In this document: one piece after another, positions 20,227-31,879 of the stretch | Position numbering within the stretch: the stretch's first letter is position 1 | How the letters are laid out: every line of letters begins with the position of its first letter | Assembly (NCBI GenBank): GCA_934131175.1 | Contig: CAKOZD010000016.1 | Location: 8,302 to 40,301 of the forward strand | Reading direction: 5' to 3' | Source of the DNA: an uncultured Bacilli bacterium | Lineage (GTDB): Bacteria; Bacillota_I; Bacilli_A; RF39; UBA660 | Length of the DNA stretch: 32,000 nt | Made by a program: the position numbers and the translations under genes | Notes under the pieces: generated by a model | Told to the model about the DNA's origin: nothing | The model's input: the letters and a program-made list of their open reading frames with translations, nothing else | Database searches by the model: none

Positions 20227-20709
20227 TTACTCTTCCTCTAATGCAGTTATCTCTTCTTCTGTTAGATTAGTAAGCTCAGATATTAAAGATTTATCCATTT
20301 TCTTCTTTAACATATTCTTTGCTATTTCTATTTTTTCTTCTCTTTTTCCTTCATCTTTCAATGCCCATTCCTTGTCATAGGCTTCTCCAAATCCATCTTC
20401 AAAGCTTACTTCTTCTGCTTCTTTTAGATATTCATTCATAACTTTCTCATCACCCAAACCTTTTAGTTTATCTAAGTCCATATCTACTAGTGCTAGAATA
20501 TATTTTTCTCTTTCACTAAGACTTTTTTCACCTTCATTATACCATTTCTTTCTTAGGTTTGGTACATATATTTGTATGAATACTAATTTATCACTTAAAA
20601 CTAAAATATATACACTTTTATACTTTTTCAAATGCAAATTAATTATAGTTTTAAACCATAATCTTTTTCGCCTAGTAACATAATTAAAATTTTTAATAGA
20701 ACAAATCAT
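20227..20709 (-). pseudogene. 5'-truncated Rpn-family (PD-(D/E)XK nuclease/putative transposase) gene fragment
   Basis: Only the C-terminal half is recognisable (DKLVFIQIYVPNL ... KIEIAKNMLKKKMDKSLISELTNLTEEEI). The N-terminal nuclease domain is absent. The stop lies inside a terminator hairpin GAAGAGT/ACTCTTC followed by a T-run. Confidence 0.5.
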
Positions 20710-21388: not shown

Positions 21389-22522
21389 CTAGTTCCCTTC
21401 TTCAAGAAAAAATTTATTCTTGTATACAAAATTATTAGTAGTTGATACTTTAAAATACCCATTATAACTAGCAAGAGATTTCTTATAAAAATTAATATTA
21501 TTTTTTCTTGCTTTTCTTAACTTTCTTTTTATTTTCTTACGTGTTTGATTATTAAGTAAAATAATTAATTTTTTATTTTTTAAAATAAATTTATATCCTA
21601 AAAAATTCACTCCACTCTTTAAATTATAAATCTGTGTTTTCTTATTAAGAGATAACTTAAGAGAAGATAACTTTTTATTAATTAAATTTAGACATTTCTT
21701 TAAATATTCTTTATCATGATGAATTAAAATGAAATCATCCATATATCTAATGTAATACTTAATATGAAGATGTTCTTTTATATAATGATCAAGTTCATTC
21801 AAATAATAAATAGCAAGTAATTGACTTGTCTCATTACCAATAGGTAAACCTTTTCCTTTATGATACCTTGGTAGACTATAGAGTTGTTTTTTTCTTAACT
21901 CTAAATCATAAATATTCATATCTTCTAAGTGAGATATTTCTCTATTTATAGAACTATCTATTAAATCATTTATATAGCCATTATCAGTACTATTAATTAT
22001 ATTAATTAAAATCTTTAAAATATCTTTATCAAAATTTTCATGAGATAACTTATTAATTAATATTTCATGATCAATATTATAAAAGTACTTACTAATATCA
22101 CATTTTAAAATATAAACATTATCATAATTTTCTTTAATAGAATTAATATATTTTTTCATATATCTAATTCCTTCTTTAGAACCTTTTCCAGTTCTTGTAG
22201 CAACATTTTGTTCAATTAACTTTCTTGATAAAGTTGGTATTAAAACATATTTACTTATTAAGTGATTAACTATTTTATCATACATTAATTCACTCATTAT
22301 AATTCTATACTTAGGTTCTTTAATTATAAAAATATTATATTTAAGATGACTATAATGTTTGTTATTTAAAGTATTATATATCTTAACAATATTAGATGTT
22401 TTAGTTAATTCAAATCTTACTAGTTTTGCTTTATGACATGTATTTTTATAGATACCATCATATACATCTTTTATTTTATTAATAGAAACAATATCATTAT
22501 AAGAAATACTATATTTATTCAT
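21389..22522 (-). CDS. DGR-type reverse transcriptase
   Basis: RT motifs CDISKYFYNIDH, LPIGNETSQ (DGR-specific [I/L]GxxxSQ), YIRYMDDFIL (YxDD) and VNFLGYKF. It lies next to Avd and the TR/VR pair. Confidence 0.9.
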   Translation of the reverse strand: MNKYSISYNDIVSINKIKDVYDGIYKNTCHKAKLVRFELTKTSNIVKIYNTLNNKHYSHLKYNIFIIKEPKYRIIMSELMYDKIVNHLISKYVLIPTLSRKLIEQNVATRTGKGSKEGIRYMKKYINSIKENYDNVYILKCDISKYFYNIDHEILINKLSHENFDKDILKILINIINSTDNGYINDLIDSSINREISHLEDMNIYDLELRKKQLYSLPRYHKGKGLPIGNETSQLLAIYYLNELDHYIKEHLHIKYYIRYMDDFILIHHDKEYLKKCLNLINKKLSSLKLSLNKKTQIYNLKSGVNFLGYKFILKNKKLIILLNNQTRKKIKRKLRKARKNNINFYKKSLASYNGYFKVSTTNNFVYKNKFFLEEGN

Positions 22523-22910
22523 TTACAAGTTTATATTCCTTAGAATCTTTTTTATAAACATATTTCTTTAATGTAGCATTGTCTAATATTTTATTGATTG
22601 TTTTTGAATTATAATTATTAAGTACCTTACCATCTAAATCATAAACAATATTATTTTCAACATAAGCTTCTTTAGTAAACATAATAATATTTTCAGAATT
22701 ATCATTAGAATAACCATATAACTTAGAAATATATTTTCTAGTAGATGTATCAACATTATTATCTTTTATATTATTATATAAATTATAAACAACTTTATAT
22801 TTTACTACTTTATTTTTATTACCTTTCTTAGTATCTGATAAGAAAGATATTGTGACTAGTACAAGTATTATTACTAGACTTATAAATATTAATTTTTGTA
22901 TTTTATTCAT
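22515..22910 (-). CDS. small protein with an N-terminal membrane anchor, function unknown
   Basis: One N-terminal TM helix (LIFISLVIILVLVTISFL). It overlaps the avd stop by 8 nt and the RT start by 8 nt, which suggests translational coupling. Confidence 0.5.
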   Translation of the reverse strand: MNKIQKLIFISLVIILVLVTISFLSDTKKGNKNKVVKYKVVYNLYNNIKDNNVDTSTRKYISKLYGYSNDNSENIIMFTKEAYVENNIVYDLDGKVLNNYNSKTINKILDNATLKKYVYKKDSKEYKLVNE

Positions 22911-23256
22911 TAATAGTCACCTCTTTTTTTCGTAGTGCTTTAGTCATAGCAATTATTTCTGATAAGAAATTACCTATAACAATATATTTCTTTTCACTTA
23001 TAATTTTTTTATCATGACTTATATTTATATAAAAATTTAACATTGATATAGATATTAATAAGTCTTTTAAGTTTTTATCTTTTATTCTTATTGAATCATT
23101 TATGTTGTATGAGTAGATATTTTTTATTAATTCATAACAGGTTTGTTCTATGTTATTTTTTAATACTACTTCTTTTTTAGGATAATCAACTAAGACTTTA
23201 TTAATGTAGTTTATTGTTTTATATGATTTATCTAATATTTTGAAATTTGTTTTCAT
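22903..23256 (-). CDS. avd: Avd-like four-helix-bundle protein (DGR accessory variability determinant)
   Basis: About 117 aa, helical and basic, with the pattern DYPKKE..L...IEQ....L...I..N ... LKDLL..ISMLNFYINIS..KK.IS.KKY...GNFLSEI. GGAG (23264-23267) sits 7 nt before the ATG at 23256. Confidence 0.7.
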   Translation of the reverse strand: MKTNFKILDKSYKTINYINKVLVDYPKKEVVLKNNIEQTCYELIKNIYSYNINDSIRIKDKNLKDLLISISMLNFYINISHDKKIISEKKYIVIGNFLSEIIAMTKALRKKEVTINE

Positions 23257-23510
23257 ATTGTTTCTCCATAATGTGGCAAAAGAAACTAAGATGATATTCT
23301 TGATGAATCTTTTCCACTGATATAGCAATAGTTAATTAATCTCTTGTTAAATAACGTCTATACCTTGTTTTTAGCACAGTGGCATGGGACTAACCTTGTT
23401 TCCAATCTAGATATGATTATTGCTAATGCAACTACTTCCTCTAAGTATCAGCCATGACCAATACTATGCGGTTCATTAGTTATAATAATTACTAATTTGT
23501 AGTAGGAAAT
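23257..23510 (-). ncRNA. non-coding segment 3' of the template repeats (candidate spacer/priming region of the DGR RNA)
   Basis: No ORF and less AT-rich than its surroundings. It contains UUAGUCCCA (23393-23385), complementary to the UGGGACUAA that precedes each TR. Confidence 0.35.
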
Positions 23511-23618
23511 TGGGCGAACGCTGTAGCCGTTACCAGTGTTGTTGTTCGTAAGCTCGCCTGAAGAATTCACGTTGAACTCGTTCGCATTACCCCAATTGTT
23601 GAAGATGGACGGCGACAT
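23511..23618 (-). repeat. DGR template repeat TR-1 (36 codons, no cognate VR in this window)
   Basis: It encodes MSPSIFNNWGNANEFNVNSSGELTNNNTGNGYSVRP with 10 AAY codons. It has the same 5' leader and the same termini as TR-2, but a different interior. Confidence 0.75.
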
Positions 23619-23663
23619 GCACTCATCTGACCACTAATTAGATTAGTCCCAAATTTTGGAAAT

Positions 23664-23775
23664 TGGGCGAACGCCGTAGCCGTTATTGACATTACCCCAT
23701 TCGTTCAACTCGCCGGAAGACGTCACATTCAACTCGTTAGCGTTGCCATTGTTGTTGAAGTTGGACGGCGACATG
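23664..23775 (-). repeat. DGR template repeat TR-2 (cognate of the VR)
   Basis: It aligns with 23939-24050 at an offset of 275. There are 20 mismatches, all at template adenines on the coding strand. It encodes MSPSNFNNNGNANELNVTSSGELNEWGNVNNGYGVRP. Confidence 0.9.
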
Positions 23776-23863
23776 CACTCATCTGACCACTAATTAGATT
23801 AGTCCCAATTTTTTCATTCCCTCAATGATGAGTCATTTCGGGACAAGTTGTTTTCTTTTCTTA

Positions 23864-26602
23864 TTATTCAATAACATATGGATCCTCCTTCGTTCCTGAA
23901 CCTGTGAACTGAAGATTTGAAGAATCTAGATTGATCACTGGGCGAACGCCGTAGCCGCCACCGACAAAACCCCATACGCCCAACTCGCCGGAAGACGCCA
24001 CAGACAACTCGCGAGCGCCGCCATTGACGTAGAAGTGGGACGGCGACATGGTCCAATAATAGGTACCGGTATACAAATAGAATAATTGATTTTTATAACT
24101 TGTTCTTGCTCCTGCCATGTTAACTTCATCTGCTGTTATTAAACCAATTGGACTTGTTAATTTTTTGTTACCGATTGTACTATTTGTTGTTGTAAATTTA
24201 TCATTAACATTTGAACATGTTAATCTTGGTCCAGTCATTCTTCCACCCCATGAGTAGAACCTTTCATATCCATATATTGTTGGTACTGCTCCATATCCTG
24301 AATTTTGATAAGTACCACTTTTTATTGTAGATATTTCCCTATCGTTACAGAATGATGAGTTTGTTGCAATTTTATCACTATAACTTGATAAATTGTTTTT
24401 ATACCAGTTTTCTAAATATGTTTTCATATTACTATTTGTTGTATTTGATATAGCATTTTCAAGTGATGGTGATGCATACTCTACTGCTTTTACATTCATA
24501 GATGTTGGACTTACATACTTATCAACATGATTCAATCTTTGACTAGTCGATGTTGATGATGTTCCAAAAACTGTATATAATTTATCATTCGCATGCTTAG
24601 TGTTATATTCTGATAATGTCATTGCTTCAAGTGTTCCACTCAACTTAAATGCATTGTTATTTTTATCAAATGTATATTCTGTTCCAAAATAATATTTTGC
24701 TGTTGCAGACAATCCTGAATAAGTAAAAGCATAGGTCCATTCTTTTATTTCATTTGTACTGGTGTCTCCATACATATATCCAACATAAGCATTATCACTC
24801 CATCTAGAATTAAATGCACTTGTTCCTACTTGTCTATTACTACTTGATTCACCATTTGCATGAGGAGATGTTCCATCATAAATTAATCTTACTGAATTAT
24901 CTCCATTTATTCTTATAATTCTCCAATATTTGTTTGCAAACTTAACATAGTTTCCTCCAACTATTCCTCTATAATAATAACTTGTTCCTTCATCATCAGC
25001 TGTTGAATAAAGACCTGATTCTGAATTATCATAACTTAGAATTGCTGATGAATAATTATATTTAGTCAAAGTATAAGTCACTTGTTGAGTCGTCTGGTTG
25101 GTAGATGACGTTGCACTAGTTAACAAATACATTGTGTCACAAGACGTACTTGTATTTCCACATGTATAATATGTTCCATTAGAATAATCTTTGGTTGTTG
25201 GGTCTACCAATGTTGCACTCTTTAAAGTATATTTCCCAGTTGACTCTTGGAATGTGTAACCAGTATTTGTATCTGTTACTTGTGAAATATAAATATATGA
25301 CGAAGTTGATAGCGTTGATGTTTGTGTTGCATGTATTTCATTATATTTTATAGCTGGACTTGTAACATTAAAATTAGGTGTACCTTTATTTACAATTTCT
25401 TGCTTTGCTTCAGTAACATTTGTATTTTTTTGTTCTGTTGCAATTATACAATCTGAGAAATTAGTTAAATTGTTCTTCTCACACCAACTTTTATGTCTTA
25501 TTGTTGTACTCTTAGCAGTTATTTCAGATATATTTCCTGCAATATCTTCAGCATAAACTGTTGCTAAATAATCTCCTTCATCTAAACTTGTAAATGTATA
25601 ATTAGGAAATTCACTTTCAACATAAGTAGTTCCACTATCTTTACTATAGTAATATTTACTAATTCCACTAAATGAATCTTTTGCATCTACTGTAATTGTC
25701 ATAGTATCATCATTAGGTTCAATAGTAACTGTAGATATAGTTGGTTTCTCATTATCAACTTTATATTTATTACTACATCTGCTATATTCATTACCTTTAC
25801 TATCAACTGCTTTAAAACACGCCACTTGATAATCTTTATTATTTGAAAAAGCAATATTGTATTTATTGTTTGTTTTTGTTATCTCTTTTTCTGGTACACA
25901 TACTTCATCAGTTGTTACACAATATTTTGCATAAGCAATTTTTGTATCATCTAATACTTCAAAATTAAGAGATAATGTTTTATACCAATCTTCATTTCCT
26001 AATTCATGGTCGCCTAAATCATATTTAATTCTTGTACCATTTCCTGTACCATCATCTTGTACATAATTAAGAGTAAAACTTAATTTTGCATTTATATCAT
26101 TTGGAGCGTAATTATTTCCATCCTTATATTTTATCTCTATTTTTAATGTCTCTTTTGAATCTTTTTTTAATAAGTCTTTTTCTTTTATTTCATTTCCATC
26201 CGAATATTTAATTGAATATTCTAAATATTTTTGTTGTTCTTCAGTTAATTCTGTTTTAAATATTTCTGTTAGCATAGCATCAATTGATCCTGAATTAACT
26301 ACATCAACATCAAATGAATATTTATCTCCTGGACTTTCTAACGATATATCCATTGATATTGTTGTATCATTAACAATCTTTGCTGGTGTAGTTGCTTCTA
26401 CATTTCCATCATCAAATTTTATATTTGAAAAATGAATGTTCCAAGATGTTTTTGCTATATTTGCTGTTCCAGCTAATTTTAAATTACTACTTAGATATGC
26501 ATATCCTACGCCTATAGTTGACCAAGCAAATAAGATTAACGCAAAGATAAGTAATTTTTTACTATTTTTTATTGAAAAGTATTTATTTATCTTTCGTTTC
26601 AC
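23864..26602 (-). CDS. DGR target: secreted multidomain protein (TasA/camelysin-like N-terminal domain, Ig-like domain, C-terminal variable ligand-binding module)
   Basis: GTG start at 26602. The signal-anchor ends in GVGYA. The LESPGDKYSFDVDVVNSGSIDA motif is present. An Ig-like repeat lies around DNEKPTISTVTIEPNDDTMTITVDAKD. The C-terminus contains the VR. Confidence 0.85.
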   Translation of the reverse strand: MKRKINKYFSIKNSKKLLIFALILFAWSTIGVGYAYLSSNLKLAGTANIAKTSWNIHFSNIKFDDGNVEATTPAKIVNDTTISMDISLESPGDKYSFDVDVVNSGSIDAMLTEIFKTELTEEQQKYLEYSIKYSDGNEIKEKDLLKKDSKETLKIEIKYKDGNNYAPNDINAKLSFTLNYVQDDGTGNGTRIKYDLGDHELGNEDWYKTLSLNFEVLDDTKIAYAKYCVTTDEVCVPEKEITKTNNKYNIAFSNNKDYQVACFKAVDSKGNEYSRCSNKYKVDNEKPTISTVTIEPNDDTMTITVDAKDSFSGISKYYYSKDSGTTYVESEFPNYTFTSLDEGDYLATVYAEDIAGNISEITAKSTTIRHKSWCEKNNLTNFSDCIIATEQKNTNVTEAKQEIVNKGTPNFNVTSPAIKYNEIHATQTSTLSTSSYIYISQVTDTNTGYTFQESTGKYTLKSATLVDPTTKDYSNGTYYTCGNTSTSCDTMYLLTSATSSTNQTTQQVTYTLTKYNYSSAILSYDNSESGLYSTADDEGTSYYYRGIVGGNYVKFANKYWRIIRINGDNSVRLIYDGTSPHANGESSSNRQVGTSAFNSRWSDNAYVGYMYGDTSTNEIKEWTYAFTYSGLSATAKYYFGTEYTFDKNNNAFKLSGTLEAMTLSEYNTKHANDKLYTVFGTSSTSTSQRLNHVDKYVSPTSMNVKAVEYASPSLENAISNTTNSNMKTYLENWYKNNLSSYSDKIATNSSFCNDREISTIKSGTYQNSGYGAVPTIYGYERFYSWGGRMTGPRLTCSNVNDKFTTTNSTIGNKKLTSPIGLITADEVNMAGARTSYKNQLFYLYTGTYYWTMSPSHFYVNGGARELSVASSGELGVWGFVGGGYGVRPVINLDSSNLQFTGSGTKEDPYVIE
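23939..24050 (-). repeat. DGR variable repeat (VR)
   Basis: It encodes MSPSHFYVNGGARELSVASSGELGVWGFVGGGYGVRP, ending about 25 codons before the target's stop. By hand count it is about 65 percent GC. Confidence 0.9.
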
Positions 26603-30513: not shown

Positions 30514-30536
30514 TCATAATATTTGCTATATTATGA
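30514..30536. repeat. recombinase-core-like dyad, copy A
   Basis: TCATAATAT-TTGCT-ATATTATGA. It is the reverse complement of copy B at 31857-31879. Confidence 0.6.
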
Positions 30537-30594
30537 AAAAAAAGATAAAAATAAATAATATCAATGATTCTATCTTTTTTGACTAATAATTTGA

Positions 30595-31683
30595 CTAATA
30601 ATTTATAAAGATTGTATTAAAAAATTCTTTCTTGTATTCTAGATTTGAATGCACATATATTGATAATGTCGTTTTTACATTTGAATGACCAAGAACTTCA
30701 CTAAGTGATTTTATATCAAATCCAAGATGACAGCATCTTGTTGCAAATGTATGCCTTAAAATATGAAAATTGTAATCCTTCATATCAAGATTTTTTAATA
30801 TTTTCTTATAATTATAATAAAAAGTTCTTGTATCTATTGCCTTTATAGAATTTGTTAAAACAAAATTTCTTTCATTATTTGAAATTAGTTTTCTATGTTC
30901 AAGCAAACATTTTAAAATAACTTTGTCTAATGGAATAACCCTAATAGAATTATCTGTTTTTGCTGAATTTAAAATAACTTTTGTCTTCTCAAATTTTTTA
31001 CCATCATTTGTTTTAACTCTAGACAAAGTATATTCTACTGTTAATACTTTATTTTCAAAATCAACGTTTTTCCACTTTAAAGCACAGACTTCGCCTAGTC
31101 TTAATCCAGTATGTAGTGAAATTAATATACCTAATGTATACTTATTTAAATTTAATATTGAGTAGTTTTCAATCCTTTTTAATTCATTATCATTCAACGT
31201 TTTTAATATCTTTTTATGTGTTTTAGGTAATTTAATTTCAAAATTTAATCCAGAATATTTTAGAATTGATTTAAAAATGACCATTACTTGTTTTAAAGTA
31301 TTCTCATTTATTTCATTTTTTTTACTATACATAAAATTGTAAATCATTGATTCTGAAATTTGATTCGTTTTTAAATTGCCAAATGTTGGTTTTATATGCT
31401 TGTTTATAATATTTGAATAATAATTTAATGTACTTAATTTTAGATTTATTTTATTTTTATTTAACCATTCATTTATTTTTACATTGAATAAATCATTATC
31501 TATTTTTTCAATATTTTGATTTATTCTGAGCATTATTTCAGTACGTTTATTTTTTACTTCTTGATACGTCTTACCATAAACATAACCATAAATATTTTTT
31601 CCAGAATAGTCTCTTCCTTTTACATATCTTGCTTCCCATCTTCCATCTTTTCTATAAAAGATATTTTCACCTTTACGAGCCAT
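30595..31683 (-). CDS. tyrosine recombinase / phage-type integrase
   Basis: The C-terminal catalytic region has HTGLRLGE, HILRHTFAT and LGHSNVKTTLSIYVH (R..H-x-x-R..Y). The N-terminal MARKGENIFYRKDGRWEARY is typical of arm-binding domains. GGGAGG sits 9 nt before the ATG. Confidence 0.85.
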   Translation of the reverse strand: MARKGENIFYRKDGRWEARYVKGRDYSGKNIYGYVYGKTYQEVKNKRTEIMLRINQNIEKIDNDLFNVKINEWLNKNKINLKLSTLNYYSNIINKHIKPTFGNLKTNQISESMIYNFMYSKKNEINENTLKQVMVIFKSILKYSGLNFEIKLPKTHKKILKTLNDNELKRIENYSILNLNKYTLGILISLHTGLRLGEVCALKWKNVDFENKVLTVEYTLSRVKTNDGKKFEKTKVILNSAKTDNSIRVIPLDKVILKCLLEHRKLISNNERNFVLTNSIKAIDTRTFYYNYKKILKNLDMKDYNFHILRHTFATRCCHLGFDIKSLSEVLGHSNVKTTLSIYVHSNLEYKKEFFNTIFINY

Positions 31684-31856
31684 ATAATTTTACCTCCCTA
31701 ATGACTAATATTTTGACTAGTAATTATTTAAATTACATATTTATATTCAACATATTTTGACATTTTTTTACTAAAATTGACAAAAATTACAAAATAATAT
31801 TGAATTTAGAATTTAATTATTATACAATAAGAGTGTAAGATAGTAGTAAATAAGTT

Positions 31857-31879
31857 TCATAATATAGCAAATATTATGA
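31857..31879. repeat. recombinase-core-like dyad, copy B
   Basis: TCATAATAT-AGCAA-ATATTATGA, followed by T8 on the plus strand. Confidence 0.6.

Follow-up and report, generated by a model that had tools for sequence, protein, structure and literature searches.

A diversity-generating retroelement with tandem, nonidentical template repeats beside one variable repeat in an uncultured gut Bacilli bacterium

The retroelement and its two template repeats

A diversity-generating retroelement (DGR) was examined in a 32,000-nucleotide (nt) stretch of DNA from an uncultured Bacilli bacterium (GenBank assembly GCA_934131175.1, contig CAKOZD010000016.1, positions 8,302 to 40,301), referred to here as the window. 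All parts of the DGR lie on the minus strand, from the target gene, which has the variable repeat (VR) at its 3' end, through an array of template repeats (TRs), a spacer, avd and a small open reading frame (ORF131) to the reverse transcriptase (RT) gene. The spacer is noncoding and separates the array from avd by roughly 250 nt. The genes and repeats are as follows.

23864..26602, minus strand: DGR target gene, 912 amino acids (aa), read from the ORF and its translation
23939..24050, minus strand: VR, 112 nt, derived from TR-2
23664..23775, minus strand: TR-2, 112 nt, 37 codons from ATG, 109-nt-type scaffold "b", template of the present VR
23511..23619, minus strand: TR-1, 109 nt, 36 codons, 106-nt-type scaffold "c", second template and last unit of the array
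22903..23256, minus strand: avd, 117 aa from ATG (PF22296 bAvd, phrog_3206; gene call in contig L001)
22515..22910, minus strand: ORF131, small conserved protein between avd and RT
21389..22522, minus strand: DGR reverse transcriptase, 377 aa (RVT_1, phrog_1423)

The RT matched RVT_1 (2.8e-18) and phrog_1423 (reverse transcriptase; 1e-83 across residues 2 to 366), and Avd matched PF22296 bAvd (1e-11, above the cut-off) and phrog_3206, "Avd protein of DGR" (9e-17); family searches gave no match for ORF131. A TR/VR pair adjoins nearly all of the 203 relatives of the RT identified in IMG/VR. The locus thus has the RT, the Avd, the TR/VR pair differing at adenines only and the VR in the 3' part of a target with population variation that define a DGR. 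In place of a single TR per RT, it has two units in the window and 2 to 12 in its relatives.

The units start, at their leaders, at positions 23808 and 23652, 156 nt apart. A 34-nt leader (TTGGGACTAATCTAATTAGTGGTCAGATGAGTGC) is identical in both copies (23808..23775 and 23652..23619) and continues into CATGTCGCCGTCC; the 5' end ATGTCGCCGTCC and the 3' end GGCTAC[G/A]GCGTTCGCCCAATTTCC are also common to both units, and the interiors diverge through substitutions and one codon. A repeat search recovered the duplication over 105 nt at 87% identity with a spacing of 156 (family D2), as well as three copies of the 3' block (family D3). Tandem Repeats Finder, run on the window, did not report the TR duplication, as there are two copies only and their interiors have diverged. 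An earlier note, made from the sequence alone, had described tandem units of 37 and 36 codons with common ends and had given the translation of TR-1 (MSPSIFNNWGNANEFNVNSSGELTNNNTGNGYSVRP), and this description was correct in every detail. Its reading of both repeats as intact templates was also borne out, each having 28 adenines and a retained leader and trailer, as was its derivation of the current VR from TR-2: over 112 nt, the two differ at 20 adenines and at no non-adenine position. Against TR-1, the VR shows 13 non-adenine mismatches and 11 gap columns. No other sequence fitting TR-1 was found when the window was scanned with the adenines of TR-1 as wildcards. The two-unit arrangement was recovered independently in the assemblies of three samples (L001, L002 and L003), and the repeat is therefore neither a chance occurrence nor an artefact of a single assembly.

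The VR occupies codons 852 to 888 of the 912-codon target ORF. Clustering at 90% identity places the target protein in a group of 218 members, each 912 or 911 aa long, with differing VRs. Among the 15 members listed, the VR was reached in 14, and 13 distinct VR sequences were present among these.

Template arrays in relatives and the origins of their variable repeats

Relatives of the element were taken from the contigs of target-cluster members, together with contigs matching a DNA pattern for any VR or TR with these ends. Close relatives, with RTs at least 95% identical to that of the window, have 2, 3, 4 or 5 units, and clades with RTs 71%, 62% and 59% identical have 2 to 4. The largest arrays, with 8, 11 and 12 units and up to 2.4 kb in length, are found in a clade whose RT is 63% identical (L126 769-3249, L127 927-3249 and L131 513-2195), and include degenerate units and nonunit inserts. 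Longer and one-codon-shorter scaffolds co-occur down to the clades with 59% RT identity, and the pair of 109- and 106-nt scaffolds, with the 106-nt type last, is retained in clades down to 62%. No comparable tandem TR array was found at 80 distant viral DGR loci used as a control, which mostly have one TR/VR repeat pair and sometimes other repeats too. As judged from these sequences, the window is the smallest form of a multitemplate DGR spread over several related gut-bacterial clades, and tandem units are characteristic of the family, not an isolated duplication, which goes beyond what the earlier note had proposed.

To assign donors, mismatches at non-adenine template positions were counted on a common alignment. 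The VR is an adenine-only derivative of the first of two units, with no non-adenine mismatch, in the window, L010 and L117. Donors with no non-adenine mismatch were likewise found at other positions of longer arrays, namely, the first of four units in L008, the second of three in L017, the second of four in L029 and the last of four in L012, and in the large arrays unit 11 of 12 (L126), 10 of 11 (L127) and 8 of 8 (L131). The 106-nt VR of L004 and L005, which belongs to a 911-aa allele, has as its donor the last of three units, of the TR-1 type (1 non-adenine and 10 adenine mismatches). This allele bears out the suggestion in the earlier note that TR-1 may be a second cassette for the same VR, one that would replace it with a different scaffold. 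Six samples (L111 to L116) have an identical RT protein and a five-unit array, and the donors among them are unit 4 (L111), unit 2 (L112, L113 and L116) and unit 1 (L114, a 911-aa allele). Differences located at adenines were also seen in more than 20 further pairs of VR and unit. Overall, VRs differ from their donors by 5 to 20 adenine changes and 0 to 1 non-adenine changes. In the close clade, the c type is the donor of just 1 of about 13 complete alleles.

The comparison of VRs with units showed that, to all appearances, any unit of an array can be copied into the same VR with adenine-specific errors, and that the resulting alleles differ in scaffold (the non-adenine positions) and in length (36 or 37 codons). 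We consider it highly probable that multiple templates are used for one VR in this family. We infer that TR-1 of the window can itself act as a template for the VR beside it and simply did not give rise to the current allele.

Four independent cases were identified in which the VR matches no single unit (5 to 8 non-adenine mismatches) and is matched perfectly as two pieces. Compared with the best single unit, the two-piece solution reduced the non-adenine mismatches from 7 to 0 in L006 and L007, from 5 to 0 in L011, from 5 to 0 in L026 to L028 and from 8 to 0 in L146. The 3' part of each chimera comes from an upstream unit. In the three cases with a complete array, the last unit supplied the 5' part; in L026 to L028, the 5' donor is of the last-unit type (c), and that unit is missing from these contigs. 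The junctions are located in the conserved blocks AACGAGTT or GGCGAGCT. The L146 case is the closest to the window, as its RT is 98% identical to that of the window and its last unit equals TR-1 save for AGC>GGC. The 5' two-thirds of its VR have the TR-1-specific positions GCG, TCTTCAGGC and, at codons 9 and 10, TGG GGT, the last of which is the marker that the earlier note had proposed looking for in population VRs. Chimeras would arise by template switching, or by partial, 3'-biased homing, at AACGAGTT and GGCGAGCT. The 5' donor is always of the last-unit type, yet this c type gives only 1 of about 13 complete alleles. On four cases only, this pattern is more readily explained if the RT switches template towards the unit nearest the spacer than if partial homing occurs at random in successive rounds, although either may apply.

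Two further observations concern the units themselves. A unit poor in adenines (19 adenines; ...FPDWFSASEFSVTSLGKIMDFGIDYGHGVR) is conserved across species-level genomes (L008 4672-4777, L017 8662-8767 and L111 2097-2202), and no VR derived from it was seen among those compared; it could represent a cassette that is fixed or a unit that has decayed. The possibility that such units are archived copies of VRs was rejected, since unit 2 of L008 differs from the adenine-rich units at many non-adenine positions, which marks it as long diverged rather than newly copied from a VR. The orthologous first units of L004 (8827-8932) and L006 (6819-6924) show eight differences, all in the 3' half, and all eight fall at adenines of the adenine-richer copy. 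This suggests that TR units are occasionally hit by adenine mutagenesis themselves and so may sometimes be rewritten.

A number of loci have a VR that does not fit the units beside it. In L009 and L025, the RT is cut to its first 24 residues and Avd is partial, and in L015 no TR, Avd or RT was found; the VRs of these loci fit unit types gone from the locus and thus look like frozen alleles of decayed loci. In L016 and L019, the donor unit is missing from the contig itself and was found in sister contigs. The mismatches in L009/L025, L015, L016, L019 and L145 were considered as a case against templating in situ, and this was rejected because decay or assembly collapse fits better; the donor types for the mismatching loci are present in sister contigs, with 0 to 1 non-adenine mismatches (1 to 3 for L015). 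Separately, in two independent assemblies (L125 3144-3249 and L130 2987-3092), an adenine-mutagenized copy of the unit-6 type ends the target gene and is followed by the trailer of the last TR and the spacer, with the whole array and the 3' end of the gene missing. This is either a real deletion between VR and TR or an assembly collapse.

Several points weigh against the use of many templates for one VR. Template use is deduced from static assemblies, short-read assemblies handle arrays unreliably and the 112-nt VR of L014 fits no known unit. Within the window, there is no TR-1-derived VR, the contigs seen from its strain (L001 and L002) all carry the same TR-2-derived VR and TR-1 has a private G>A change (GGCTACAGC) in the GC-rich 3' block that could lower homing efficiency. 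These last observations favour a view of TR-1 as an inert recent duplication, produced by unequal crossing-over and without a role in diversification. We regard this as quite unlikely, as the scaffold pair is conserved, with the 106-nt type last, in clades whose RTs are 62 to 71% identical, TR-1 keeps 28 adenines in AAY codons along with an intact leader and trailer, and TR-1-type units are the adenine-only source of whole VRs (L004/L005) and of the 5' parts of others (L006/L007, L026 to L028 and L146). The earlier note had also raised the possibility that TR-1 serves a remote VR in another gene, instead of or besides the adjacent one, and other DGRs do have remote targets (PMC5758913). A candidate was present in a metagenome, where a VR-like sequence of 112 nt ends a different gene (L020 2404-2515; ...GYGVRPVIRVTKDNSTV); its 3' half fits a unit of the L013.u1 type, differing at adenines only apart from one C>T, and no adjacent VR was seen for L013.u1. 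This sequence may be a remote or former target, but it has no spacer-complementary flank, belongs to a different clade (related to L010 to L013) and does not fit in its 5' half. Neither the window nor the seven species-level genomes, which as metagenome-assembled genomes (MAGs) are incomplete, gave support for a remote VR: a scan of 185,579 species genomes by end pattern gave a single locus in each of these seven. A remote VR for TR-1 is on this evidence unlikely.

Partial copies in tandem beside an expression site, together with mosaic VRs, are reminiscent of cassette systems, in which silent copies are moved into the expressed gene by homologous recombination (gene conversion of the pilin or vlsE kind) and not by reverse transcription. 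However, the VRs differ from their donors at adenines (5 to 20 changes, against 0 to 1 elsewhere), and this adenine-only pattern is the signature of a DGR RT, not of recombination. The flanks in common are just 11 to 17 nt, intact RT and Avd accompany the arrays and the loci without them look frozen (L009/L025 and L015), so that gene conversion is very unlikely. The arrays and chimeras might also have been produced by co-assembly of single-TR strains from metagenomes, and mis-threading is indeed clear in some contigs: L114 and L115 repeat a unit, L145 drops one and L119 fuses the VR to the last TR. Other contigs (L005, L027, L028 and L030) break off at the array. Exact copy numbers of units are accordingly estimates. 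Against such an origin, the unit junctions (AATTTCCAAAATTTGGGACT) are unlike either end of the array and recur across assemblers and samples, including MEGAHIT k141, the same chimeras are present in separate assemblies (L006/L007; L026/L027/L028) and the chimeras are adenine-mutated on both sides of blocks of 8 to 10 nt, below any assembly k-mer. As the junctions recur and the chimera blocks are too short for mis-joins, the array and the multidonor pattern are taken as real, and an origin by assembly is extremely unlikely.

Predicted RNA elements of the units and the spacer

The region between the VR and avd was examined for elements that could determine which template is copied and where the copy goes. 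The following were noted, all on the minus strand.

23924..23933: VR 3' flank CAATCTAGAT, complementary to the spacer at 23403-23412; candidate recipient-specifying site, resembling an initiation of mutagenic homing (IMH) site
23818..23844: hairpin past the target stop codon, GTCCCGAAATGA..TCATTGAGGGA, read from the sequence
23796..23806: unit 1 leader (GGGACTAATCT), upstream strand of the predicted TR-2 stop duplex; inverted repeat I3 with 23385-23396, 11/11 pairs
23658..23664: TR-2 trailer AATTTCC; the match to the VR extends as far as its first A, and the remainder is complementary to the spacer primer strand
23640..23650: unit 2 leader (GGGACTAATCT), upstream strand of the predicted TR-1 stop duplex; inverted repeat I2 with 23385-23396, RNAalifold helix
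23505..23511: TR-1 trailer AATTTCC, RNAalifold pairing with 23434-23442
23475..23496: stem-loop just past the last TR (ATTAGT..ACTAAT), candidate Avd-binding element; 6-bp helix with a compensatory UA>CG change
23434..23442: spacer primer strand AGAGGAAGT, predicted template:primer duplex with AATTTCC; 9 invariant pairs in 9 sequences from 4 clades
23403..23412: spacer element ATCTAGATTG, just 5' of the anchor; reverse complement of the DNA 6 nt past the VR
23386..23396: anchor AGGTTAGTCCC, single downstream strand for either leader; predicted cPRT-stop duplex of 11 bp
23368..23383: small stem-loop and then an A run, directly past the anchor (RNAalifold), laid out like the cPRT-stop stem-loop plus adenosines

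In the cryo-electron microscopy structure of the DGR RNA of Bordetella phage BPP-1, a duplex between the spacer and the TR 3' end sets the priming nucleotide. Next to it, the spacer pairs over 11 bp with sequence upstream of the TR, and this second duplex halts the RT and is needed for priming; beyond it come a stem-loop and adenosines, and the stem-loop bound by Avd is located immediately past the TR (bioRxiv 10.1101/2023.10.23.563531). The stem-loop at 23475..23496 is in the position of that Avd-binding element. The three parts of this architecture (Avd stem-loop, template:primer duplex and stop duplex) were all predicted in silico by RNAalifold for the window and its relatives (9 sequences from 4 clades), with limited covariation.

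Each of the 49 units scanned (49/49) has an 11-nt leader with 11/11 pairs to the anchor, which holds for all four leader variants, and an AATTTCC trailer. The leader GGGRYTAATCT is located 29 to 33 nt upstream of the repeat, AATTTCC follows the repeat immediately and the sequence between them varies freely. RNAalifold, applied to 7 and then 9 sequences from four clades, predicted the leader and trailer helices unprompted, the leader helix having no broken pair; its pair at columns 11-281 is CG in five sequences, UG in three and UA in one. The homology between TR and VR ends at the first A of AATTTCC, one nt 5' of the predicted duplex. This A reads C in some VRs, as is expected of the first templated base. 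Under constrained folding, the window RNA gave -128.7 kcal/mol with TR-1 docked and -126.1 kcal/mol with TR-2 docked, at most 2.6 kcal/mol apart, compared with -132.7 kcal/mol for the free ensemble.

On this model, each unit would be a complete template module, consisting of an 11-nt leader, an adenine-rich repeat and an AATTTCC trailer, and the units would share a single downstream spacer RNA of about 190 nt, the Avd, the RT and the recipient VR. The spacer would dock one unit at a time, with the others looped out, through pairing of AGAGGAAGT with the trailer of the unit (template:primer) and of AGGTTAGTCCC with its leader (stop duplex). The template would thus be picked by alternative RNA folding, and cDNA synthesis would begin at the first A of AATTTCC. 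Docking is suggested by the complementarity of every leader and trailer to single sites in the spacer and by the two-duplex layout of BPP-1. Counting against it, only a single pair of the leader:anchor helix is fully compensatory and the trailer helix shows no variation at all, so that conservation and analogy provide most of the support for the RNA model. We regard template choice by RNA docking as evenly balanced between right and wrong.

How the VR is chosen as recipient is unsolved for retrohoming (PMC12875486). The spacer element and the VR flank are complementary over 8 to 11 contiguous nt in all six clades (window, L010-L012, L019, L117, L118, L126 and L140), with compensatory changes at three positions (G-C to A-U, T-A to C-G and A-U to G-C). 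In this alignment, 90.8% of cells are paired, compared with 14 to 40% in slid controls, and none of 500 shuffles (0/500) reached the covariation score. The TR units do not have a flank complementary to the spacer, and it is possibly this flank that singles out the VR as recipient. Guide-like recognition of the recipient VR by spacer RNA is put forward tentatively, as a proposal somewhat more likely to fail than to hold. The same caution applies to a wider picture in which the array is a self-renewing library of cassettes, with docking as an RNA switch, the 10-nt guide ATCTAGATTG marking the VR and units occasionally rewritten. If true, these proposals would add an RNA-guided step to retrohoming and a template library that evolves through the activity of the element itself.

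The hairpin between the target stop codon and the first leader is in the same position in all groups, with GGTCAAAAATGA / TCATTTTTGACC in other clades. It was not scored by the terminator scan. It could attenuate transcription, or it could correspond to the inverted repeat by which homing is assisted in BPP-1. A promoter and terminator scan of the TR region gave no terminator and one weak promoter-like site on the plus strand. No Rfam match at gathering thresholds was found in the window, and the tRNA scan of it was empty.

Gene context and comparison with known systems

The N-terminal signal region of the target protein is of the SipW type; the protein also has an Ig-like/OmpL47-type domain, with weak PKD/Big_13 and OmpL47-type matches, and the VR lies in a C-terminal domain related to DUF6273. 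Its C-terminal 389 aa (23867-25033, minus strand) have more than 7,500 homologues, some with PF19789 / DUF6273. An AlphaFold2 model of this part had a predicted local distance difference test (pLDDT) score of 91. In a Foldseek search of the Protein Data Bank (PDB) with the whole 389-aa model as query, the best match was the Thomasclavelia ramosa IgA peptidase 9qa6 (E value, 2e-3; TM score, 0.31), and no C-type lectin (CLec) match was returned; a sequence search of the PDB with the target protein gave no match. Upstream of the target gene are genes for a 453-aa protein, a DUF5305 protein, a SipW-type signal peptidase, a 179-aa ORF and a tyrosine recombinase. The operon shared with the SipW-type signal peptidase and the DUF5305 protein suggests that the target is a secreted fibre or adhesin.

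Perfect inverted repeats of 25 nt (30514-30538 and 31855-31879) enclose a 1,366-bp segment with the tyrosine recombinase gene (30595-31683, minus strand). Relative to the window, this segment is inverted in L004, L005 and L007, with 95% identity when reverse-complemented and 54% when collinear, and the flanks are collinear. The segment probably acts as a phase-variable switch, situated immediately upstream of the operon that includes the DGR target. On the other side, past the RT, are genes for iPGM and a copper ATPase, and these housekeeping genes, together with a GC content of ~25%, indicate that the element is chromosomal. The right-hand neighbours of the cassette differ between L001 and L002, with iPGM and copper ATPase in one and GerA/GerAC and ParAB in the other; the difference starts past an Rpn-like gene (about 20227-20709 of the window, minus strand; compare L004 1-671). 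Rpn-family genes (PDDEXK_2 / HTH_Rpn_C) are present at both ends of the cassette, and the block of DGR and target may lie on a mobile or rearranging island. The matching contigs come from human-gut metagenomes, with MAGs labelled uncultured Bacilli, Mollicutes or Tenericutes, and the host is an uncultured, low-GC human-gut bacterium resembling Bacillota or Mycoplasmatota. A scan of IMG/VR with the VR flank gave no match, and the element is thus taken to be cellular and not viral.

Like the DGR of BPP-1 (mtd-VR / avd / TR / Sp / brt), the element has an RT and an Avd, adenine-only differences, a VR at the 3' end of the target and a GC-rich block at the 3' end of VR and TR, and its spacer has two predicted pairing partners, the 3' end of the TR and, over 11 bp, a stretch upstream of the TR, with a stem-loop and then an A run coming next. 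It differs in having, instead of one TR, 2 to 12 nonidentical units, each with its own spacer-pairing strands, for one spacer and one VR, in the order target, TR array, spacer, avd, ORF131 and RT, in alleles whose VR length and non-adenine positions vary and in chimeric VRs. DGRs with one TR and several VRs, known from Treponema denticola, Legionella and Stenotrophomonas (PMC4891356, PMC5758913 and PMC6642488), likewise depart from the rule of one TR to one VR. Here the multiplicity is reversed, with many templates for one recipient. Surveys list DGRs with at least two TRs (53 in PMC11661182, with examples in PMC6642488); these also have more than one TR near one RT and are reported as counts or with each TR having its own VRs, and some of the 53 may belong to the kind described here. 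In the literature searched, which was that available without subscription, neither tandem arrays that feed a single VR nor chimeric VRs nor spacer-pairing elements in each unit were found described.

Current DGR finders built around a single TR will assign such loci wrongly or throw them out, and assembly from short reads breaks the loci up or collapses them. The arrays offer a natural experiment on how the particle of RT, Avd and RNA chooses its template, through the spacer-pairing strands of each unit, and on how the cDNA finds the VR, through the spacer element covarying with the VR flank. Engineered DGR mutagenesis could adopt the same design, with templates multiplexed on one RNA.

A DGR is usually viewed as exploring the sequence space of the adenines of one fixed template. 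A template array with chimeras lifts this limit, as non-adenine positions, loop length and whole scaffolds also become variable. An analogy is provided by pilE/pilS of Neisseria and vlsE of Borrelia, in which an array of silent partial copies lies beside one expression site and mosaic alleles are built from cassette segments. Unlike in those systems, the transfer here has the signature of adenine mutagenesis, the cassette is a mutable seed and there are no homology tracts of the RecA type, an arrangement that recalls combinatorial cassettes layered on hypermutation.

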